Numbered from the stretch's first letter, positions 2,488 through 54,507 are shown. The stretch: 64,000 nucleotides of DNA from a virus (IMGVR_UViG_2526164631_000023), one strand, 5' to 3'. The notes: generated by a model not told the origin, from the letters alone. Translations and numbers: made by a program.

Positions 2488-2557
2488 CAACACCACTTAG
2501 GAACACAAAAGGATGCGAATTGGTACATGTTTAACACCAAAAATGAACCTGGAGAGG

Positions 2558-3016
2558 ATGGTTTTGAAAAAGATAATTTTGATTGTAATTGCGCTTTTAG
2601 CCATTTCTGGAATTTACCGAACAACGACGGCAGTTATCGAACACATCAGGTATGTCCGATCGCTTGAAGACTCAAAATCACAACTGGAAAGCACGAACAA
2701 CACGCTTTCTACCGCATTACAGTTAAGTGAGAACGCTCGCTCAGCCATGCTGACCGAAAACGAAAGAATTAAAGCACTGGAAAAGGAGTACCAGCGCAAA
2801 ACAGCAGAACTGAATGCCAACCTAATCAAACAACGAGAGGAAAGCCAGAATGAAATCACTCGCCTTGAAAATGCGTTGCGCCGTGCTGGGATTAACGATG
2901 TGCGTGTGCCTGATGACGTTATCAGGATGCAGCGGGAACGGGCAAAAGCCATCAACCAGCGTGCCAGTGAAAATTACCGTAGAAGCCACCAGCAAGCCGC
3001 AGGCAAATCTGATTGA
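2558..3016 (+). CDS. Rz-like i-spanin (N-terminal TM plus coiled coil)
   Basis: ORF 2513..3016; ATG 2558 follows GGAGAGG; MVLKKIILIVIALLAISGIY TM helix then Q/E/R-rich coiled coil. Confidence 0.5.
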   Translation: MVLKKIILIVIALLAISGIYRTTTAVIEHIRYVRSLEDSKSQLESTNNTLSTALQLSENARSAMLTENERIKALEKEYQRKTAELNANLIKQREESQNEITRLENALRRAGINDVRVPDDVIRMQRERAKAINQRASENYRRSHQQAAGKSD

Positions 3017-3182
3017 TTACTCCCCTTGTTTAGTGCCAGAAGACACGCCAGTGCTGTTAAACAAGTATCCGACATACGCTGAACAGTTATTCAGCACGAT
3101 CGACGAATGCAACCAACGAAACGCACTGAATAACCAAAGAAACAGGGAGATTTGGGAAGGGAAGGGGGATCAAGGCTCCTGA
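2850..3182 (+). CDS. Rz1-like o-spanin lipoprotein, out-of-frame overlap with Rz and extending 166 bp past the Rz stop (alternative start 2871)
   Basis: Signal peptide with lipobox LSGC (MRCAVLGLTMCVCLMTLSGCSG); Pro-rich mature part; overlapped spanin architecture. Confidence 0.45.
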   Translation: MKSLALKMRCAVLGLTMCVCLMTLSGCSGNGQKPSTSVPVKITVEATSKPQANLIDYSPCLVPEDTPVLLNKYPTYAEQLFSTIDECNQRNALNNQRNREIWEGKGDQGS

Positions 3183-3628
3183 AGCCAGATGTCCTGGCTG
3201 TCAGCTTCTTCGAAACCGTGACAGACGTTAAAGTCACTCAAACGATACTGACGCTGACGGCCCCTATTTCGCTCATGCCAATGCATATATCCACCAGCAA
3301 ATGCCAGCGGACAATCGCTATAGTCTATGTAACCAATACCATTCCCCAAACGTGCTTCGCGCGCACCAGCTTTCCAGGACAGTAGAAAAGAGTCACGATC
3401 CGCCAGCATAACAACAAAATCGTCCGGATCTCCGATACAGTGAAGAATACCTGCCTTACATAACTGCTTGAGCGCTTTTGACTGGCTCAGGATGTCTTCT
3501 CCGTAATACTGAAAACAATCATCAACAACAGCGGGATAGCCTGTCGGGGGATTCAGGCTGGTTGGTATAGCTGACGCGATCGCCAGCATTAAGCGATATT
3601 GTGTTTTTGATGGGTTGACGTGACTCAT
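3170..3628 (-). CDS. hypothetical protein (152 aa), second gene of a divergent two-gene operon
   Basis: ORF track; 16-bp gap to the upstream gene; convergent with and overlapping the Rz1 3' end. Confidence 0.4.
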   Translation of the reverse strand: MSHVNPSKTQYRLMLAIASAIPTSLNPPTGYPAVVDDCFQYYGEDILSQSKALKQLCKAGILHCIGDPDDFVVMLADRDSFLLSWKAGAREARLGNGIGYIDYSDCPLAFAGGYMHWHERNRGRQRQYRLSDFNVCHGFEEADSQDIWLQEP

Positions 3629-37862: not shown

Positions 37863-37873
37863 TGTGTTAGAAA
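37863..37873 (+). promoter_or_regulatory. TGTGTTAGAAA motif copy with partial inverted partner
   Basis: TTTGTGTTAGAAAATTAATTTGATGTTTCTAAATC. Confidence 0.4.
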
Positions 37874-37999
37874 ATTAATTTGATGTTTCTAAATCGGAAT
37901 GTATGATCTGCATCATCGACTGAAGTCATCCATTGCTGAAATTTTTAGTTGATCTTCCATGTTTTCAGGCTTATATTCATGTCGTCGTAGCAAATTCTG

Positions 38000-38200
38000 C
38001 GACCGGGTTTAGCAGCCTGAATACGAATGCGGACAACCGCAGATATCCGATATTGCGGTATTTTTGTGTCCGTAAAACCACGTTACGCCCGAATTATGGT
38101 GGGGCGTGATGGGGAGGCTTCGGCCTGCTGGTTTCATTCGTGCCAGTCTGCTAACCCCGTCACGTCCTGCCACCCGTTTAGCAGCGGGTGCGCAGGTTGT
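38000..38200 (+). ncRNA. candidate c4-like antisense RNA / structured leader
   Basis: GGGTTTAGCAGC (about 38004) and CGTTTAGCAGCGGG (about 38174) are both complementary to GTCTGCTAACCCC (about 38146); hairpin CACCCG-TTTAGCAG-CGGGTG. Confidence 0.2.
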
Positions 38201-42900: not shown

Positions 42901-45900
42901 GGCGAACGGTCATCATGACAAAAGAACAATTCGCGTCTATCCCGCTACGAGAAAAAACCATCGAGGAGAACTCACAGCAAGCTGTCTTTAATGCTGTGGA
43001 AATGGGGCGTCTTGACCTGGCGTCCGGTAAACACCGTGATGCGCAGAAGAAGAACAAGATTAAGGATCAGGCCGCGAATACCGGTACAACGAAGAAGCAG
43101 AATATCCCGTACTTTGAGGATATGAACTTCGATAGCGTGATTGCCGACGAGGGGCATAATTACCGCAACTCCTTTAATGCCGGGCGTGAAGCGGGACAAC
43201 TGGCATATTTGCCTAACCCGGCAGTATCCAAGATGGCCCGCGACATGGCTGTAAAAGCTGCGTACATGATGAAACGCAACAACGGGCGTGGTGTAGTCAT
43301 GCTGACGGCAACTCCGCTGGTGAACAGTCCGATTGATGCCTTCAACATGCTGTCTACTGTCATTCCGCAGGAAGAGTGGATGCGCATGGGTATTGTTACG
43401 CCGGATGATTTCGTTCGCGTGTTCGGCAAAACAGCCACAGTTCAGGTTCAGAAAATTTCCGGTGAGGTGGAAGAGAAGCAGGGGCTGGTGGGCTTCCAGA
43501 ACCTTGATGGTCTGCGTGGTATTTTCCACCGTTGGACCACTCTGAAGACTGCCGCAGATGTCGGAGCGACGGTTAAAATTCCCGATATCATCGAGAACAC
43601 CTTGCAGATCCCGATGACAGGGGAGCAGGAGGCTGCTTATGAAGAGCTTCGTAAGCGTGCTCAGGAGTTAAGTCGCAATGATGAGCTGACAGTCGATGAA
43701 AACGGGCATATCACTAACGACAAACCGGATGATTTCATCTTCTCCATCATCCGCGACATGGATAAGGTTGCTATAGATCCGGATCTGTATGCCAGTGCGA
43801 TTACATTCCAGTTCCCCGTTGAGCTTGCAGACAAGGTAAAAGCTATTGCTGATGCCCTGCCAAAAGTCGCAGGCGGTAAAGTGGCAGATGATGCAGACGA
43901 GGCCGAAGAAGACGGCGCTGGTGGACTGGTCAGTACGCGTACCAGCAAGGTAGTGAAGACCACCTTTAGTGAACATCCGGCGCATGTTGAAATACGCGCC
44001 AGCATTGAACTGGAAGCTGAAATACTGAAGGCCATTGCTGCCGCCGGGATTGATCTGCAGCAGGTATCACACCCCATCCCACCGAAGTATGCCGCGCTGA
44101 TCGAAAACCTTCGTGAAGGTCTGAAGAACGGTAAACAAATTGTCTTCATTGATGAAAAAGCCCAGCACCAGAAGCTGCGCCGTATTATCGCCAGTGCACT
44201 GCAAATGCCGGAGCAGGAGATAGGCATTATCAATGCGACGACCGTTAGCCAAGCTGGCGGCATCAAGCTGAAGAAGGTGAATAAACCGACTGAACCTACT
44301 CCGAATAAAAACGGTGAATACAAAGAAGGGGCATGGGAAACCTACTACAGCAAACTTGCCCAATATGAGGATTATCTCTCAGCTAAAAATGATGCTGGCC
44401 TTGAGGGCATGGAAGGTATTGCCGCCGACTATAACGAAGGTCGCACGCGCATCATAATCTGTAACAAGAAGGCTGAAGTAGGTATTAACCTGCACATCGG
44501 GACAACCGATATCCACCACCTGACACTACCCTGGACACCAGCCAGTATCGACCAACGAAATGGGCGCGGTGCGCGCGTAGGGTCACCGCAAGAGAAGGTC
44601 AATGTTCACTACTATTGTGGCAAAGGCACATTCGATGACTTCCGTCTGGATACGCTTAAACGTAAGAAAGACTGGATCAAGATGGTGATGACCTCCGACA
44701 TGTCAGAGATCGCCAATGGTGATGCGGATGATGCTGATGAACGCGCCATTATGCTGGCGGCAAACCCGGAAGAACGCCGCGCAATCATGGCTCGCCAGGC
44801 GCAAGAGCGTGAAGAACGTCTGAAACTGAAAGCACAGCGCGAGGCCAACAATGCTCTCGATATCTACCTGAAAGCGGCAAACGCCGCCGGAAAAGATATC
44901 GGCATGATGGAGACAGAACTGAAAAGCGCGATGGAACAGATAGAGTATTACCAGCGAAATCTTGACGACCTGATAAAAGCGGGTACGAACAGGAATGGGC
45001 AAAAATACGCGCTTGAGCAGTTGAGTAGCTACAGAAAACGTGCGCGGGTGCTGCGGTTTGCGATCACCAGGGCAAAAGACGCGGATACCATAATGAAACG
45101 CTCTCGTGGTGATGTGGAGCGCGCTATTAAGTCTGGTGTGCTGGATATCAGTATCGATGTTATTCAGAACCCACAGGAATATATGCGCACTGACAAGAAT
45201 ATCCTGTTGCATAAAGGTAGTTATTACCGTGCAGTCATTGATGATCGCGAAACAACAGCGATTGTCCGGGTGGAAAAAATTGACGGTGAAAAAGCACAAT
45301 ACCTCTGCCGTATCGCCTGGCTGGATAGAGCAAGTCGTTACGCTCGAGCACCGGGGTCAATCATTACATTGCCGTTTGACTCTGTGATTGAAGCGGTAAC
45401 TTTTGAAGAGGGGGTAGCTGAATCGCGCGCAACGGCTGCGCGAGGTGTTCAGTGCCACCAGCTATCAACAATACTTACTCGCGATCAGTTCTATGATGCT
45501 ATTCGCAATGGGGTAATGAATGTTATTGCTGGTAAACCTGGTAATGCATGGGGCGGTGGGTCAGCTATTAAATACTGGGCATATCGCACAGATGATGGTC
45601 AGATCGCGCTGTCATCGGCCTATGATGGCGTGATAGGCCAAAAAATCGGGCGAGCATCGGATATAGCACCTGAGCGATGGATATATCCTGATGGCAACGA
45701 CGAGGCGCTGAAGCGTGAAGTGGCAAAAATACAAGCCAGTGATAACCCGCTGAATATCGTGGACGGCGAGGGATTCCTCCAGGCATTGTATGGGTATGAT
45801 TACATCCAGGGAATGCAGGCATGGGGCGCACAGGCAACGATGGATGATGTTGCCCAGGAGTTCGAAAACTGGATGGCTGGGCGTGGTCTGTCAGGTCGTT

Positions 45901-48833: not shown

Positions 48834-50057
48834 GTGACGGGAACAGCAATGAGTCAACACACTGATACTTCTAATCTGGAAATTATCTCGACAGCAATTG
48901 AAACGCTGCGCACACAAATCGCTCTTATACAGAAACGGAATCCGGGTGATGACCTGTCAAAGCGACTGCACGAGAGTGTCATTGCCACTACAGATAACCT
49001 GGTGGCGGAAATCAACAAGCTGCTTGATGATGGGGCAGTTGATTACAATAAGCTGGTGGATCAGTTTGAGGAATACCAACAAGCAGTTAATGATGGCTTG
49101 ATCCGTTTTTCACAAGTCACAGGCGTATCAGCGACAGTTGAAAGCCTGGGTGATGCAGTTAATCAATTTGCCGCGAATATGCGTAATGAGATCGGCAATC
49201 TGGAAGCGCGTCTTGAACAGGCAAATACACTGCGTAAATCTGCCGAAGCCGATTTGAACCGTTACAAAAAAGACTATCCGCCAAGCCTGACAAAGCGGCT
49301 GGATGTTGCGGAGAAGGATAACCGCACGCTGAAAAGAGAGCGCCGGGAACTAAAAGAGCGTTTAACCAAGCTCAATCAGCAATGCATTGATTATCAAGGC
49401 GAAGGCGTCACACTGCGTAAAAAGTTGGCTACAGCGCAGAGCATTATCGAAACATTAAAGCGAGAGTGCTCACAGCTTGGTCACGATCTGAACCGTGCTT
49501 GTGGCATGGGACAAAGACCAGAGACATTTCCACTTATGTATGATGGAAGGGATGCCATTGCCTACATCCATGAGTATCCGCACGGCCTGGTTGCGGAAAC
49601 TGGGCAGCGTGGCGAAGCACTGCTGACGGCTAATTACCATCAACAAATCAGAACCAATCGCCTGTTAACGATGGATGTGATCCCATCGGTATGGGGAACG
49701 CCGCTTTACTATCGCCTGCCGGGCTTCGAAAAGGACTGGAATACCGACATAGACGAATGTCTCGCAGATAAAATTATGGCGTACCTGGAGACGGATTTTC
49801 CGCGCTTATATCGCCGGATTATGGACTCTAAGGATGCGCCAATCGATGAATTAAAAATGCGTCCGGAGACGCTGGAGGCAATCAAGCAGACGGAGTTTGA
49901 TACTGTATTCAGTGTGGCCTGCATTCCAAGCTGTTTCCATGAAAGCATCCCGTTCATGCAAGGAGATCGTCGTCAGGAAATCATTGACGCTTGCCGGGTA
50001 TGGGCGAACGAATGGGATAAGAAGAATGGGGGTGTAGAAGATCTTTATGGGAAATAA
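48834..50057 (+). CDS. hypothetical protein with N-terminal coiled coil
   Basis: 407 aa ORF. Confidence 0.4.
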   Translation: MTGTAMSQHTDTSNLEIISTAIETLRTQIALIQKRNPGDDLSKRLHESVIATTDNLVAEINKLLDDGAVDYNKLVDQFEEYQQAVNDGLIRFSQVTGVSATVESLGDAVNQFAANMRNEIGNLEARLEQANTLRKSAEADLNRYKKDYPPSLTKRLDVAEKDNRTLKRERRELKERLTKLNQQCIDYQGEGVTLRKKLATAQSIIETLKRECSQLGHDLNRACGMGQRPETFPLMYDGRDAIAYIHEYPHGLVAETGQRGEALLTANYHQQIRTNRLLTMDVIPSVWGTPLYYRLPGFEKDWNTDIDECLADKIMAYLETDFPRLYRRIMDSKDAPIDELKMRPETLEAIKQTEFDTVFSVACIPSCFHESIPFMQGDRRQEIIDACRVWANEWDKKNGGVEDLYGK

Positions 50058-50068
50058 TGTGTTAGAAA
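50058..50068 (+). promoter_or_regulatory. TGTGTTAGAAA motif copy followed by TAAAAT
   Basis: TAATGTGTTAGAAATCTAAAATCACA, near-identical extended element to the 4051 copy. Confidence 0.45.
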
Positions 50069-50214
50069 TCTAAAATCACAATTCGAATGTATTGATTGTG
50101 AAGATAACTTAACATAGAATTTTCCTTGCTGGTGGGCGGTACCCACGTTTCGCTTGCTGGGCTTGATAGTCACTTATTGGTTATTGTTCGCCCACCAGCA
50201 TTTAACAAATTAAA

Positions 50215-50224
50215 GTGTTAGAAA
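50215..50224 (+). promoter_or_regulatory. GTGTTAGAAA motif copy followed by TATAGT
   Basis: AAAGTGTTAGAAATGTATAGT. Confidence 0.4.
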
Positions 50225-51292
50225 TGTATAGTAATGCAAGAGCACGCTTTGGCACCGTGCAGGCCAAAGTTCAGCAGGTTTAGTGCGGAAAGTGGTTTCA
50301 GAGAGAGCACTTTGCGGAGTAAACGACAATACATGTTGAGCCACGGAAGGTCTTTTTAAGGTGTTCATTGATGATGGTCCGGCAGAGAGTAACGGTACAT
50401 GCTGCATCTAATCATCAATGCACATCTTCAACATTAAGGAGGCATAGGGATTTTTGTGGCGGTTACCTTTTGCCCTGAGTCTCCTTAATGTTGCGGTAAT
50501 GCACCTATGCGGATGTGGCCTTGCATTGTGTCTTGAAAGAATGGGGTAAGGCCGGGGATATCCCCAGGGGGAGGCACCCCCGCTGCAACGAACAGCCACA
50601 GACGGCAGTCGAGTGATGGAAACGTGTAAAGACTTTAAACCTCGTTACGGCTGGCGTGGCAAACGCGACAACCGAGACAGAGCGGTGACGGGCGGAGAGA
50701 GTGCCGCATCAAGAAAGAAGCCGACTTGTGATCCCTTTCAGCGGGCATTTGAAAGTGAATCCAGCTCAGGCAGTCGGCTTCTTTCTTGTGTGAGATGTAG
50801 CGTATTTGCCCATCTTCGGGTGGGCTTTTTTAGGGTTTTCGTCATGGTTAGCGACTTTGCGGCGGTTTAGAAACTGACCATTAAAGTAAATGCAAACGAT
50901 GATCTGATGATGGTAGCGGCCTAAGAAGCCAGACGCCACGGGGTATGAGTCGTCCCCCGTCAAAAAAATCGACCGCAGAGTGTCCCCGTCTGTGTATTAG
51001 GGAACGGGGAGGCATAACAGGCAAGGGCGCTGGTGTGATTAACCAGATGAATGAGAAGGGTCAGGTCTTTCTGGTCAGCGCCCTTACCTGTTGCGTCCTT
51101 CCCGCGTAACAGCCATTGCTTAATGGCATCCTGGGAGAACTTCTTGTAACGGGTATATCCCGTCATGCTGAAGGCGCTAATCACGCTGGAAGCCAGGGTT
51201 GTGCATCCCCTGTTACCGAATTGCAGCCAGGGCGCGGTGCGCCGAAAAGCATACGGAGGTGGAAGCCCTCGCCGGAGACGTACCCGGCAAGT

Positions 51293-51369
51293 GATGGTGT
51301 AGCTCAGTAGGATAGAGCAGCAGCCTTCTAAGCTGTCGGTAGGTGGTTCGAATCCACCCACCATCGCCA
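51293..51369 (+). tRNA. tRNA-Arg (anticodon TCT)
   Basis: Manual cloverleaf: acceptor GATGGTG/CACCATC, D-stem GCTC/GAGC, anticodon loop CTTCTAA, T-arm GGTGG-TTCGAAT-CCACC, CCA end. Confidence 0.7.
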
Positions 51370-51374
51370 ATTTA

Positions 51375-51461
51375 GGGGAGTTAGTCCGTAGGGGTAGCGG
51401 GGTAGACTGTAAATCTACTGTCATTGCGACTCGGGTGGTTCGACTCCATCACTCCCCACCA
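51375..51461 (+). tRNA. tRNA-Tyr (anticodon GTA), long variable arm
   Basis: Acceptor GGGGAGT/ACTCCCC, anticodon arm GTAGA-CTGTAAA-TCTAC, T-loop TTCGACT, CCA end. Confidence 0.65.
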
Positions 51462-51465
51462 AATT

Positions 51466-51541
51466 GCCGGTTTAGCTCAGTTGGTAGAGCAGTCGCTTTG
51501 TAAGCGAATGGTCAGCGGTTCGATCCCGTTAACCGGCACCA
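51466..51541 (+). tRNA. tRNA-Thr (anticodon TGT)
   Basis: GCCGGTTTAGCTCAGTTGGTAGAGC...TTTGTAA...GGTTCGATCC...AACCGGCACCA; close to E. coli tRNA-Thr as recalled. Confidence 0.7.
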
Positions 51542-51995
51542 ACACAACAGGTAAGAGCATTTGTAGAGTTCGACTCTCTACCGTGGGCTTTTTCCCGCGA
51601 TGCGAGCCATAAATGCTCTTACCGTTGTGATGAAGTGCAGCTCTTTGAAGCAACCAGAAGATAAGCATCTGGCTTCACAACATAAACCGCAGGAACGACC
51701 AATAAACGGTAGTCCGTATGGAGAACACCCCGTTGAGGAAGAGGTCTGGCCGGAACCGTAACCGGCACTACAACGTTGAGAACACTGGCGTAACGGGGTC
51801 ATATCCCAATCTACGAATAAATGTTGCGTTGCAGCGTGACAACCAGTGTTCTCAACATTGTGGTGAATGCGCAGGCTGATGCGCGAAAGACATTGCAGCT
51901 ATTGCGGAAAAGAGCTGTTCGGCGGGGCAATTAAACGCCCGTGAGAGTCTGAAATAACCGCAAGCCGGAGATCAGCACCGGTCGCCACAATAACG

Positions 51996-52082
51996 GGAGA
52001 GTAGGGAGCATGGTGCTCAAGCGGTCTTGAAAACCGTCCCATTGCGCAAGCGATGATGGTTCGATTCCATTACTCTCCGCCA
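51996..52082 (+). tRNA. tRNA-Ser (anticodon TGA), long variable arm
   Basis: Acceptor GGAGAGT/ACTCTCC, anticodon arm CGGTCTTGAAAACCG, T-loop TTCGATT, CCA end. Confidence 0.65.
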
Positions 52083-52373
52083 GTGCAACGTTAAGAGTAT
52101 TTGGCTAATTAAGCGAATGCCGGAAGCAGAACCGGATCACCAAATGCGTACAGGCGTCATCGCCGCCCAGCCAGCCAAGTGCTCTTACCATTGCGGTGAA
52201 TGCGGCTAAGCGCACGCGGAACAGTTAAAACAGTAAAGGTGGTCTTTTTACTGGCGTAACGAGAATCCATAAGTGATCCGGCGTTAATTGTTAACTGGTT
52301 AACGTCACCGGGAGGCACCCGGCACCGCAACCTAACAGCAATGGCGTTTTGTCTTAAAAGGTGGCTGCAAGTG

Positions 52374-52502
52374 ATGGATTTTTGGGCGTTTGCCGATAAA
52401 AACCCGGAGTGGACATTATTGTTTCTGCTGGTGGTTGCATACGGGGTAGAGCAAGCGGCAAAAGCCTTACGCGGTTCTGGCAAAAAGCGTAAGCGTAATT
52501 AA
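52374..52502 (+). CDS. small hydrophobic peptide (42 aa) inside the tRNA island
   Basis: AGGTGG RBS 10 nt before ATG; MDFWAFADKNPEWTLLFLLVVAYGVEQAAKALRGSGKKRKRN (one TM plus basic tail). Confidence 0.25.
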   Translation: MDFWAFADKNPEWTLLFLLVVAYGVEQAAKALRGSGKKRKRN

Positions 52503-52511
52503 CAGTAATCT

Positions 52512-52587
52512 GGCCCTTTAGCTCAGTGGTTAGAGCGGGCGACTCATAATCGCACGGTCACCGGTTCAAGTCCGGTAGGGGCCACCA
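52512..52587 (+). tRNA. tRNA with anticodon CAT, most like tRNA-Ile2 (lysidine type); elongator Met not excluded
   Basis: GGCCCTTTAGCTCAGTGGTTAGAGCGGGCGACTCATAATCGC...GGTTCAAGTCC...GGGGCCACCA, close to E. coli ileX-type tRNA as recalled. Confidence 0.65.
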
Positions 52588-53039
52588 CATTTGGTTGTAA
52601 CACGGCGTATGGCACATGCGTCGTTAGCGGTCTGGTGTAGCTGTTAGGTACCTTTTACTAACACTGCATGGGCACACCAGGTAGCCGGAATGTGCAAGCC
52701 CCGTTCATAGCGTCGGACTGCGGATTCACCATCCTGGCGATTCGGTGTGACAGCCGGAAGAGCACGGCGCACAACAGGAAAAGGCGTTTAATTAGCGTGA
52801 GCGCCGTTTCCGTTGTGGTAATTGCGGCTATGCGCTCGTGACGAAGCCATTTTCATTCACTACGTTCTGATAAGTGACGTCGCCAGGAGTGGCTAACCTG
52901 GCAGGTGGAGGCACCACCGCCACAACTCCTTTCAATTCATCATATAGCCGCTCAGGCTGTACCCCTTAATTAATACGAAGTTACGACATCACTACCGGTA
53001 CTTCCGGGGGATAGTCGCGCGTGTAAAAAAGGAGACGTT

Positions 53040-53615
53040 ATGTTAATGGCGAACGATAACGCATATGCAGAAGAAGATCTCATTTTGAGTGACTTCATAG
53101 GGAAGCGGGAACGCTGGACCAAAAAGCGAGAGGAACTTTACGCCTCATTAGTTCGCAAAGGCGTCAATATCGAAACCGCACAGAGCGGTGATATGACAGT
53201 GGTAAGCGTGGATTTGCACGGTGTAAGCGTGTCAGCAATCAATCATGAGCCATACGTTGCGTTATCCGAGTCAATGGTAAGGTTAGTTAAGTTCCTGAAG
53301 TACACAGAAGCGAATAATGTAATCATTGGCAAAAAGAATATCCCTTTTTCCTCGGCTTTTTACTGGATGATGAAAGGGCTTGATGCCCGGCGGACATCAT
53401 GGCCTAAAGGGAGCTATATATCGATGTTCCGTGGCAGCATTGGCAGCAAAGAAAAGCTCTTCGAATTCTTGCCGGAAGAGGCATTCGATATTGTGGAAGG
53501 GTGCGATGTGATGGTGATGCCTCGCCTGGTAATGATGAATGGTGATTTACAGGCGCAGACAGACTGGTTTGCAACTGGTGTGGATATTATCGCGACTGAC
53601 TGGGAGGCTTTCTGA
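53040..53615 (+). CDS. hypothetical protein
   Basis: 191 aa; first gene of an overlapping pair (ATGA). Confidence 0.35.
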   Translation: MLMANDNAYAEEDLILSDFIGKRERWTKKREELYASLVRKGVNIETAQSGDMTVVSVDLHGVSVSAINHEPYVALSESMVRLVKFLKYTEANNVIIGKKNIPFSSAFYWMMKGLDARRTSWPKGSYISMFRGSIGSKEKLFEFLPEEAFDIVEGCDVMVMPRLVMMNGDLQAQTDWFATGVDIIATDWEAF

Positions 53616-54114: not shown

Positions 54115-54507
54115 ATGGAACAAATCAGCAGCGCAGAAATTGCGGATATCATGATCAGGGCTGACTGCTATCTGACAGTCACTGAAATTACCACTCTCGC
54201 CAAAGAAAAATACCCTCATCTCCATGTTTCACGAGTAAGTGTAACTAACATCATTCGTCATTTTGTTCGTTCAAGCAGGGCAATCTGTGAGCTTGATGAT
54301 CGTGTTTACCCACGAAAATACTGGTTGCATGGCCTGAACGGATATCAGTTCAAGGTGCGTGGGCGAACCCCTGAATACGGCAGTTTACTGGTTAAAAACT
54401 GTAGCAGGAAATCAGTCGAACAGGCGCGAAAAGAGCAACGAGAGCTGGTGGACATGGCGAATAAGCTGTGGAATGCCGCCGTTAAAAAGCGTGGTGTTGC
54501 TTTATGA
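54115..54507 (+). CDS. hypothetical protein upstream of the terminase genes
   Basis: 130 aa; stop overlaps the start of the next gene. Confidence 0.3.
   Translation: MEQISSAEIADIMIRADCYLTVTEITTLAKEKYPHLHVSRVSVTNIIRHFVRSSRAICELDDRVYPRKYWLHGLNGYQFKVRGRTPEYGSLLVKNCSRKSVEQARKEQRELVDMANKLWNAAVKKRGVAL

Follow-up and report, generated by a model that had tools for sequence, protein, structure and literature searches.

STnc100/PasD-type RNA units interleaved with tRNA genes in a P1/D6-family phage-plasmid

We analyzed a 64,000-nt stretch of viral DNA, IMGVR_UViG_2526164631_000023 (the window), and in particular an island of transfer RNA (tRNA) genes at about 50,070-52,930 that is poor in open reading frames (ORFs). 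The repeated elements around the five tRNA genes, which an earlier reading made from the sequence alone (the sequence-only reading) had sorted into two families, are the two ends of one structured RNA related to the STnc100/PasD small RNAs (sRNAs) of lambdoid phages. The island contains at least four diverged paralogs of this RNA (units A, E, B, and C) and two or three degenerate copies. We consider it likely that the island is a nearly non-coding accessory RNA operon of five tRNAs and STnc100/PasD units, in which processing of the tRNAs would release trans-acting sRNAs. The family is already known, and the units in the window are new, divergent members of it, not a new kind of element. What we believe to be new is the unification of the two motifs as one RNA, the presence of the family in P1-type phage-plasmids, a sister subtype lying under the Rfam cutoff, a pseudoknot, the hairpins that precede the units (H0), a quantified link to tRNA clusters, and a tRNA chimera.

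The first of the two proposed families was a hairpin followed by a tail, reported in four copies. The hairpins are real, and six of them are followed by a (G/A)TTGYG tail (50429/50493, 51016/51092, 51550/51623, 51766/51865, 52090/52189, and 52777/52811). The second, GGAGGCACC followed by CAAC, was confirmed at 50570, 52311, and 52907. Their separation could not be upheld, as the tail, GTTGYGGTRAAT, is the 5′ strand and GGAGGCACC…CAAC the 3′ strand of a single closing helix. The tail GUUGYGGUG is complementary to CACCRCAAC just after GGAGGCACC, and GGAGGCACC is a hairpin in itself, with a stem that varies by copy (CCGGG/CCCGG, GGGGG/CCCCC, or GGUGG/CCACC). The Rfam STnc100 alignment likewise pairs the tail with the strand that follows GGAGGCACC, the model having the same closing helix and hairpin, and units A, B, and C adopt a common architecture in their minimum free energy (MFE) folds. 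Each unit is 110-150 nt long. Its elements run in the order H0, closing helix P1 (GUUGYGGUG…CACCRCAAC), an AAU junction, a bulged helix P2, a variable middle, P4, P5, and the 3′ strand of helix P1. P5 is a 5-bp hairpin with an AGGCA loop that directly abuts this last strand, and in units B and C the loop of P4 forms a pseudoknot with the segment after P2. The sequence-only reading had overlooked that the copy in the leader, at 50485-50595, is a full unit, and also the connection to phage lambda, DicF, and Stx phages.

In a permissive Rfam scan, unit B (52192-52329) matched STnc100 (RF02076) at 40.8 bits (E = 1e-6; curated cutoff 47), and its orthologs in phages P1, P7, and D6 scored 33.4-43 bits on the same model. 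Scanning IMG/VR with the pattern GGTGAAT-N70-100-GGAGGCACC matched at least 120 contigs. From 40 representatives below 88% identity among the matches listed, with no window sequence included, we built a covariance model, R1; MAFFT misaligned the variable middle, so R1 holds helices P1, P2, and P5 only. The units from which R1 was built score 52-165 bits on Rfam STnc100 (nine contigs re-scanned), except for a subtype with GCGGC in P2, which falls below the cutoff; its copies at L024 and L031:10170 are, like the window units, unlisted by Rfam. The window copies belong to this sister subtype, which the Rfam threshold misses. An unfiltered R1 search of both strands of the whole 64 kb yielded four significant matches, all of them on the + strand and in the island, and the next best match was at 12.4 bits (E = 0.19). 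The GGUGAAU junction and AGGCA loop, together with helix P1, bulged P2, and P5, are present in units A (as GGUAAU), B, and C. The full and degenerate copies are as follows.

50485-50595, + strand: unit A, STnc100-like RNA (R1 33.8 bits, E = 8e-7; fold z = -2.4)
51624-51682, + strand: mini-unit D, degenerate, with a GUUGUGAUGAAG/CUUCACAAC closing helix around a CCAGA-AGAUAAGCA-UCUGG hairpin (direct reading and fold)
51749-51775, + strand: unit F, remnant 3′ end, a CCGG-AACCGUAA-CCGG hairpin and then CACUACAAC (direct reading)
51852-51997, + strand: unit E, divergent STnc100-like RNA (R1 17.8 bits, E = 0.008; fold closes with helix P1)
52185-52337, + strand: unit B, the clearest STnc100-family member (R1 82 bits, E = 6e-19)
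52594-52776, + strand: possible degenerate unit G, tentative, with a GUUGU/ACAAC closing helix and a 3′ hairpin GCCG-GAAGAGCA-CGGC
52807-52932, + strand: unit C, STnc100-like RNA (R1 31.9 bits, E = 2e-6)

Unit B has helices P1, P2, P4, and P5 and the pseudoknot CAGUUAA/UUAACUG, and has orthologs in phages P1, P7, and D6. Unit A, which is identical in D6, has GUUGCGG/CUGCAAC as helix P1, GCACC…GG-A-UGU as P2, and GGGGG-AGGCA-CCCCC as P5. The corresponding elements of unit C are GUUGUGG/CCACAAC, GCGGC…GC-U-CGU, and GGUGG-AGGCA-CCACC, with the pseudoknot AGCCAUU/AGUGGCU; this unit occurs in D6 and is absent from phages P1 and P7. In unit E, helix P1 is AUUGUGGUGA/UCGCCACAAU, P2 differs, and the P5 loop is enlarged (CCGG-AGAUCAGCA-CCGG); a 97% copy of it lies on an E. 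coli chromosome. By R1, D6 carries A, B, and C, phage P1 carries B and a weak E-like copy, and P7 carries B. The fold of 51683-51775 is not significant. We set aside 52594-52776 as a further unit, since its fold is suggestive but has z = -0.9, with no R1 match.

The fold is supported by covariation. In an alignment of 59 distinct sequences, which was fitted to the model and in which GGTGAAT and GGAGGCACC were fixed by the search pattern (the covarying positions lie outside those words), 97.8% of cells are paired, compared with 86% after shuffling and 40-49% when the partners are slid. Compensatory changes on both sides are found in 11 of the 17 pairs, in 101 cells against 25 expected, and none of 500 shuffles reached any of the five covariation measures. 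There are 29 G-U cells that would be A-C mismatches on the opposite strand, so the RNA is read on the strand of the tRNAs (+). For the pseudoknot we ran a permutation test of its own. In all 42 sequences considered (the 40 viral representatives plus units B and C), at least five contiguous pairs join the segment after P2 to the loop of P4, with a mean of 6.6 compared with 4.4 for permuted partners (best of 200 permutations, 4.8). The pairing strands are diverse, among them CCAGUC/GACUGG, AAUGACUG/UGGUCAUU, AAGGUUG/CAACCUU, and ACUGGAUA/UAUCCAGU. The consensus line of Rfam STnc100 has no such pairing, and the word pseudoknot is not used in the 2026 preprint on the Pas sRNAs; we propose it as a candidate feature of the STnc100 family, well supported in the sequences considered.

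These results bear on the idea that the sequences matter mainly as DNA, serving as a linker or boundary for phage recombination of tRNA and moron cassettes, with the fold incidental or secondary. The island is indeed a mosaic. The window is a D6/P1-family phage-plasmid, because 50000-53000 matches an E. coli plasmid (NZ_CP066033.1) at 100% identity and phage D6 at 94%, Rfam finds a P1-type C4 antisense RNA, and a homolog of the late activator Lpa is encoded at 54115-54507. The homologous island in phage P1 is the leader of the C1-controlled ban operon and contains an annotated ‘dicF-like region’, whereas in D6 and the window its neighbors are a pmgS-like gene (48834-50057) on one side and the block of orf6, orf5, and lpa on the other. 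These different contexts indicate that the island has moved. Unit content varies among P1, P7, D6, and the window, and a tRNA-Arg gene is a chimera with an exchanged internal segment. A 65-nt segment at 52107-52171 (UUAAGCGAAUGCCGGAAGCAGAACCGG…GCCGCCCAGC) shares 98.5% identity with lambda-type late leaders and 88% with rV5-like lytic phages. We also observed that it follows tRNA-Ser in the rV5-like phages, that its conservation is unusually high across unrelated phages, and that its own fold is not significant (z = -1.2). A different phage-plasmid of ~109 kb, CMS-2020a (L128, CP054387), has at 2502-3325 the order Asn-Tyr-Thr…Ser, with E-like and D-like elements in the reverse order relative to the window; spacer modules are thus shuffled as well as tRNAs. 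In our main reading, too, the island evolves by swapping modules with the genomes of lambdoid phages, rV5-like phages, and other phage-plasmids. A linker should conserve sequence, however, and here the sequence drifts while the pairing is kept, in the compensatory pairs, the pseudoknot, and H0, and the G-U cells point to selection on one transcribed strand. We regard a role mainly as DNA as improbable, noting that the two roles are compatible.

A second alternative had been offered by the sequence-only reading itself, which named relics of tRNA duplication as one possible origin of the repeats. Some resemblances to tRNA exist: P5 (5 bp) stacked on helix P1 (7 bp) loosely recalls the minihelix of a T-arm and acceptor stem, the 3′ end of tRNA-Thr with its flank (CCGGCACCA-ACACAAC) resembles the 3′ end of a unit (CCCGGCACCACAAC), and a T-arm-like GUAGAGUUCGACUCUCUAC lies in the loop of the H0 hairpin of unit D. 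The units themselves contain a pseudoknot and five helices, lack an anticodon arm and a cloverleaf, and have the 5-nt AGGCA loop where a T-loop would have 7 nt. ARAGORN calls no tRNA there, the Rfam tRNA clan has no match on any unit at E<=10, and the units match a distinct family with its own covarying architecture at up to 82 bits, so that decay from tRNA genes is effectively refuted. The small-RNA option in the same list gained support, as the spacers hold four paralogous members of a structured sRNA family according to the R1 matches and the covariation.

Other classes of element were considered as well. Among known ribozyme and riboswitch classes, Rfam 15 gave only tRNA, STnc100, and chance-level matches over 49900-53100 at E<=10. 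A DicF homolog (RF00039) in the leader was rejected: there is no match in the window at E<=10 or in phage P1 at E<=0.01, while true DicF scores 76.7 bits at loci L005 and L006. Integron attC sites have RYYYAAC … GTTRRRY core sites, an unpaired central spacer, extrahelical bases, and an IntI integrase nearby; CACAAC and GTTGYGG in the island fit at 5/7 positions each, the stems are continuous bar one bulge, and no integrase ORF was seen in 48-55 kb, so this candidate was dropped.

The five tRNA genes are exactly those that the sequence-only reading had claimed. In the whole 64 kb, ARAGORN calls these five on the + strand and nothing else. Rfam agrees: four of the five match its tRNA model at 42-70 bits, and the class-II tRNA-Ser matches the tRNA-Sec model at 43.5 bits. 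CCA is encoded at the 3′ end of all five.

51293-51369, + strand: tRNA-Arg(TCT), by ARAGORN and Rfam (69.7 bits); chimera with parts of a tRNA-Asn
51375-51461, + strand: tRNA-Tyr(GTA), by ARAGORN and Rfam; not in P1 or D6
51466-51541, + strand: tRNA-Thr(TGT), by ARAGORN and Rfam
51996-52082, + strand: tRNA-Ser(TGA), class II, by ARAGORN with the Rfam tRNA-Sec match
52512-52587, + strand: tRNA with CAT anticodon, ileX-like tRNA-Ile2, by ARAGORN and Rfam; ortholog of P1 trnI

In its acceptor stem, D-stem, T-arm, and flanks, tRNA-Arg matches the tRNA-Asn(GTT) that occupies this site in P1, D6, P7, and CMS-2020a (aligned with L128 2502-2576, L002 2793-2868, and L007 1494-1568). Its D-loop (which gains A20), anticodon arm, and variable loop are of the Arg type and closest to those of rV5-like phages. 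By this alignment, tRNA-Arg is an in-place chimera, in which a swap of the internal segment changed the identity of a tRNA-Asn to Arg. The neighboring tRNA-Tyr is ~95% identical to the tRNA-Tyr of rV5-like phages. The CAT tRNA aligns at ~84% with P1 trnI, which is annotated as tRNA-Ile2 and is 89% identical to E. coli ileX. Read from 52512-52587, its acceptor stem has the pairs C4-G69 and C5-G68, which we take to be TilS determinants typical of tRNA-Ile2; on these features it reads as a tRNA-Ile2 of the ileX type. In the D6 record (L002, NC_050154; 2793-3498 and 4484-4559), we noticed that three tRNAs are annotated on the strand opposite to the ARAGORN and Rfam calls and that a fourth, with a CAT anticodon and of the Ile2 type, is unannotated and was found by both programs.

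Units of this family lie near tRNAs well beyond the window. Among 124 viral units (from 120 loci among the matches listed), 34 (27%) are within 1 kb of a tRNA; for random positions the figure is 7%. Every one of the 34 shares the strand of its tRNA, which is upstream in 32 of them. Arg-TCT, from the Ile2-Arg-Arg clusters of Stx-type phages, is the tRNA most frequently nearest to a unit. Tandem arrays follow the tRNA clusters at L094 (three tRNAs, then two units from 78 nt downstream), L019 (two tRNAs, four units), L020, and L049. Because tRNA-linked tandem units recur in lambdoid phages in this way, the window represents the P1-family version of a general arrangement.

An H0 hairpin of 10-23 bp precedes each unit, with the consensus CAAC-R-GKWAAGRGC….

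50429-50493, + strand: H0 of unit A, CAAC-AUUAAGGAG…CUCCUUAAU-GUUG
51016-51092, + strand: H0-type hairpin X, AACAGGCAAGGGCGCUG/CAGCGCCCUUACCUGUU, with a degenerate tail
51543-51629, + strand: H0 of unit D, CACAAC-A-GGUAAGAGCAUUU…AAAUGCUCUUACC-GUUGUG
51766-51865, + strand: H0 of unit E, with 23-nt arms that are 91% complementary
52086-52195, + strand: H0 of unit B, whose loop contains the 65-nt segment
52777-52811, + strand: H0 of unit C, GGAAAAGGCG…CGCCGUUUCC

Across 13 instances of H0 (from the window, P1, P7, lambda, and rV5-like phages), at least 12 pairs are kept, and every position draws on several pair types; there are 11 G-U pairs and 4 A-C mismatches. The H0 of unit D has GAGCA/UGCUC in the window and the compensated GGGUA/UACCC in its P1 and D6 orthologs, and the rV5-like hairpin after tRNA-Ser encloses the same 65-nt insert in a different stem (GUUGACC/GGUCAAC). 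H0 is flanked by CAAC and GUUG because the units stand in tandem, CAAC being the helix P1 end of the previous unit or its remnant (51749-51775 and 52756-52776 are such remnants) and GUUG the start of the next helix P1. Since an upstream hairpin of at least 10 bp occurs at 47% of units compared with 20% of random positions, H0 is a trait of a subfamily and not universal.

The fit between hairpins, units, and tRNA ends raises the possibility that the units and H0 act only in cis, with H0 as RNase III sites that separate the tRNAs and the knotted units as blocks to 3′ exonucleases or to RNase E scanning that would let the tRNA precursors survive. Of the options in the sequence-only reading, that of processing signals may thus apply to the hairpins of 13-23 bp ahead of the units. 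The H0 stems behind tRNA-Thr and tRNA-Ser, of 13-23 bp, begin 0-2 nt after the CCA (2 nt for unit D, directly after tRNA-Ser for unit B), helix P1 of unit E ends 4 nt before tRNA-Ser, and the upstream position of the tRNA in 32 of the 34 tRNA-near units would suit such a role. Processing by RNase III and by RNase E is also established for the dicBF transcript, which bears a homologous unit (bioRxiv 10.1101/2023.04.14.536235), though the RNase III site mapped there is upstream of DicF and not within the unit. Against a purely cis role, 73% of units have no tRNA nearby and lie instead after DicF, after stx2, or in lambda-type late leaders, and a conserved pseudoknotted fold with invariant loop bases exceeds what blocking a nuclease needs. 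PasD and STnc100, moreover, accumulate as discrete Hfq-dependent RNAs with mapped partners (PMC8550237). We consider action in cis alone unlikely.

What our analysis establishes is the fold with its covariation, the strand, the family relationship, and the repeated position of the units behind phage tRNA clusters; the mechanism that follows is proposed. In the mechanism that we favor, with tRNA processing releasing sRNAs, the island would be transcribed rightward as one precursor, from two motifs resembling late promoters in D6-type genomes and from the C1-controlled ban promoter in phage P1. The sequence-only reading had placed the leader after motif copies at 50058 and 50215, and exact copies of GTGTTAGAAAT are found at 50059 and 50215.

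50059-50076, + strand: putative late promoter 1, GTGTTAGAAAT-c-TAAAAT, no -35 element
50215-50232, + strand: putative late promoter 2, GTGTTAGAAAT-g-TATAGT

The fuller motif, RTGTTAGAAA-N-yTAAWWT with no -35 element, has about nine copies in the window, most of them just upstream of long ORFs (+ strand: 4052, 37864, 47767, 48810, 50059, and 50215; - strand: 59880, 58471, and 36676), and is probably this phage's type of late promoter. A P1-type Lpa-dependent late promoter would combine a -10 hexamer with a conserved upstream box taking the place of the -35 element, and would require Lpa, for which the window has a gene nearby. Neither the copy at 50059 nor that at 50215 is followed by an ORF, and both point into the island; as no ORF of at least 60 aa follows 50215, that copy would drive the non-coding island. 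RNase P and the enzymes that mature tRNA 3′ ends would then excise the tRNAs and thereby free the spacer RNAs. Since the H0 of D, the H0 of B, and unit E abut tRNA ends, tRNA excision would also set the ends of spacer RNAs. RNase III may cleave the H0 hairpins, and the compact, pseudoknotted units would persist as stable sRNAs, acting in trans via Hfq, CsrA, or both, in the way reported for the PasD and STnc100 RNAs of lambdoid prophages. The tRNAs, for their part, would supply the codons AGA, AUA, ACA, and UCA, which the phage over-uses.

Several points weigh against this proposal. We infer the transcription, processing, and stability of the RNAs in the window plasmid and D6, and the identity of the promoter motif is likewise inferred, the motif having no obvious likeness to the P7 late promoter LPdam2. 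A terminator at 50808-50831 stands between the putative promoters and the tRNAs. No unit in the window reaches the Rfam STnc100 cutoff, with A, C, and E unlisted even at E<=10; unit E is weak at 17.8 bits by R1, which finds neither unit D nor region G. A pseudoknot was looked for in unit A and none was found, and single units reach only modest MFE z-scores (-1.0 to -2.4). CRISPR interference (CRISPRi) against trnT, plp, upl, tciA-C, trnI, and ban in phage P1 left plating unaffected (PMC10695390), so the homologous region is non-essential there and any function must be conditional. The island is accessory under laboratory conditions.

The dispensability of the homologous P1 region in a laboratory host (PMC10695390) is also what one would expect of accessory or anti-defense genes, and we weighed whether the island is chiefly a counter-defense locus, its tRNAs replacing host tRNAs cut by anticodon nucleases and its RNAs acting as decoys or inhibitors of defense or RNA-chaperone systems. 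Phage tRNAs can counter tRNA-cleaving defenses, and the codon usage leaves one tRNA unaccounted for. In the long ORFs of the window, AGA, AUA, ACA, UCA, and UAC occur at 5.8, 12.4, 19.2, 14.4, and 11.8 per 1,000 codons; the first four rates are, by the host averages that we assume, ~2-3 times those of E. coli K-12, and UAC is presumably about at host level. The remark in the sequence-only reading that the decoded codons are typically rare in enterobacteria holds on this comparison for AGA, AUA, ACA, and UCA and not for UAC. Codon supplementation fits those four codons and not UAC, so the recently acquired tRNA-Tyr is unexplained by it. In addition, the gene immediately downstream of the island (53040-53615) has in its C-terminal half a domain resembling Tad2, Thoeris anti-defense 2 (Pfam PF11195, 39.1 bits, cutoff 25), which suggests that the island borders an anti-defense or accessory region. 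On the other side, a CsrA sponge would require GGA motifs, and the island outside its tRNAs has no excess of them (34, compared with ~33 expected under a first-order Markov model and 32 by their rate in the remainder of the window), and a CsrA sponge was rejected; GGAGG is modestly high there (6 compared with ~1.8). A mainly counter-defensive role strikes us as quite improbable.

Comparison with known systems places the units most firmly with STnc100, an sRNA of gammaproteobacterial prophages. They share the closing helix with GGUGAAU, the bulged P2, P4, the CCGGG-AGGCA-CCCGG hairpin, and the CACC… 3′ strand, and STnc100 too occurs in phages, often in tandem downstream of tRNA-Ile2/Arg/Arg clusters. 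The window copies differ in falling below the curated cutoff, in residing in a P1-family phage-plasmid and not a lambdoid prophage, in being interleaved with the tRNAs, and in having an H0 each. STnc100 lies 75 nt downstream of stx2 and has been detected by quantitative PCR (PMC12370729). A preprint describes PasD and STnc100 as homologous to each other and situated near the antiterminator gene Q (bioRxiv 10.64898/2026.05.13.724894). PasD is Hfq-dependent on Northern blots and has partners in RIL-seq (PMC8550237), and PasD2 is in the most abundant CsrA-bound chimera (bioRxiv 10.64898/2026.08.12.744399). PasD1 and PasD2, from prophages of enteropathogenic E. coli (EPEC), are by their published description structural homologs of STnc100 in the late region near Q, and they are the only relatives with direct evidence of Hfq dependence, RIL-seq targets, and CsrA chimeras. 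According to the preprint, their copies are dispersed over prophages and not in tandem, whereas the window has at least four copies within 2.5 kb.

The DicF-dicB region of Qin-type prophages is a further relative. The sequence just 3′ of DicF is 78-80% identical to unit B, the DicF terminator hairpin takes the place of H0, and the leader in phage P1 carries the ‘dicF-like’ annotation; it differs in being a single copy, without tRNAs and followed by dicB. The combination of DicF and a unit (L005 3928-4160) is found in 4,631 of 5,426 complete E. coli genomes (85%), with a median of two copies and up to nine. The unit after DicF is unannotated in RefSeq, which lists only dicB under the match. The late leader of lambda (NC_001416 ~44790-44945, between tR′ and gene S) has, directly behind tR′, CACAAC, an H0 (GGUAAGAGCA/UGCUCUUUCC), and then GUUGUGCUG…CAGCACAAC, and it carries the 65-nt segment; in contrast to the window it lacks the P2/P5 core (R1 only 12.4 bits), and the segment comes after the hairpin instead of in its loop.

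The tRNA region of P1 and D6 (trnA, trnT, and trnI in the ban operon of P1) is orthologous to the island, with Thr, Ile2, unit B, and the H0 of D, E, and B shared. The window differs in having Arg in place of Asn, an added Tyr, and no tciA or tciB; its tRNA-Ser is shared with P7 and D6 and not with P1, and its units A and C with D6. The window island stands behind pmgS, under late-type promoter motifs, whereas the P1 island stands behind the C1-controlled ban promoter. Non-tRNA RNAs are also released from tRNA precursors by processing in the case of 3′ETS-leuZ of E. coli and the stable RNAs C and D of the T4 tRNA cluster. This likeness is one of origin, as we understand those systems: there is no relation in sequence or structure to the units, and 3′ETS-leuZ is by comparison short and unstructured. 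In the literature searched, we found no account of sRNAs from the tRNA island of P1, nor any work on the tRNA region of D6.

The remaining features of the island are mostly long hairpins in its leader. The long hairpins of the leader are confirmed as real, at 50127/50200, 50355/50431, and 50710/50788 (z = -2.3 to -3.8).

50127-50200, + strand: long hairpin between the two promoter motifs, with a 12-bp perfect base (z = -2.3)
50355-50431, + strand: hairpin with 21-nt arms, 86% complementary (z = -2.8)
50710-50831, + strand: 17-bp perfect hairpin (50710-50788), then an intrinsic terminator (50808-50831; GCCCATCTTCGGGTGGGC and a T run) (z = -3.8)
52374-52502, + strand: TciC homolog, ORF for a small hydrophobic membrane protein (tblastn 39% identity, E = 5e-5 to P1 TciC; also matched in D6; no Pfam match)

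By its arrangement, 50710-50831 looks like the 3′ end of an sRNA. Its terminator is identical in the leader region annotated as ‘dicF-like’ in phage P1, and only the terminator is shared. The TciC-like ORF, directly upstream of tRNA-Ile2, is the sole likely coding sequence in the island. The genes tciA and tciB, which are present in P1, P7, and D6, are missing from the window, so unit B adjoins tciC almost directly. A Pfam scan gave no match for an 85-aa ORF at 50613-50870, nor for a 53-aa ORF, and a homolog was found for the TciC-like part alone.

Some further observations concern the surroundings. At 37971-38177, the C4 antisense RNA (71.9 bits) together with the a1/b1 element that it targets (52.2 bits) marks immI, the P1-type immunity region, and the promoter-like motif copy at 37864 lies just upstream. 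In phage P1, plp and upl (L001 3118-3687) are homologous to window ~51436-51890 on the minus strand, with the plp ORF antisense to the RNA units. The C-terminus of plp is the reverse complement of tRNA-Thr, and the ORF is interrupted by an in-frame stop in the window and is frameshifted in P7. For upl, no homolog exists in D6, in P7, or in the window. The two annotations may be spurious. At 52973-52983, ATACGAAGTTA matches 11 of 13 bases of what we take to be the loxP arm, with no matching second arm nearby; ~0.03 such 11-mers are expected by chance in 64 kb on both strands.

A bolder reading than the release of sRNAs during tRNA processing would treat the unit not as an ordinary base-pairing sRNA but as a conserved pseudoknotted scaffold RNA, with invariant loops and junctions around a hypervariable middle, that forms with the tRNAs a horizontally mobile, RNA-only operon with its own role in lytic growth. 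We offer it tentatively and think it unlikely. Such an operon may be common to lambdoid, P1-like, and other phage-plasmid phages and in part to rV5-like phages, and the scaffold may, for example, bind or titrate Hfq or CsrA, direct the processing of tRNA precursors, or counter RNA-targeting host defense. If this were true, one of the most widespread unannotated RNAs of E. coli, present in 85% of its complete genomes, would have an unrecognized function.

With the units defined, a messy-looking spacer region becomes a defined set of RNA genes, and the STnc100/PasD family is extended from lambdoid prophages to P1-family phage-plasmids. Four regions that tend to be considered apart are thereby linked: the late leader of lambda, the spacer between DicF and dicB, the surroundings of stx, and the tRNA region of P1. 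The in-place change of a tRNA-Asn into a tRNA-Arg illustrates cleanly how a phage tRNA can change identity through a swap of its internal segment. The layout in which tandem structured RNAs come after a tRNA cluster suggests that both are moved by phages as one RNA-only module, an idea that can be tested in phage P1, which is tractable and in which the region is dispensable in the laboratory.

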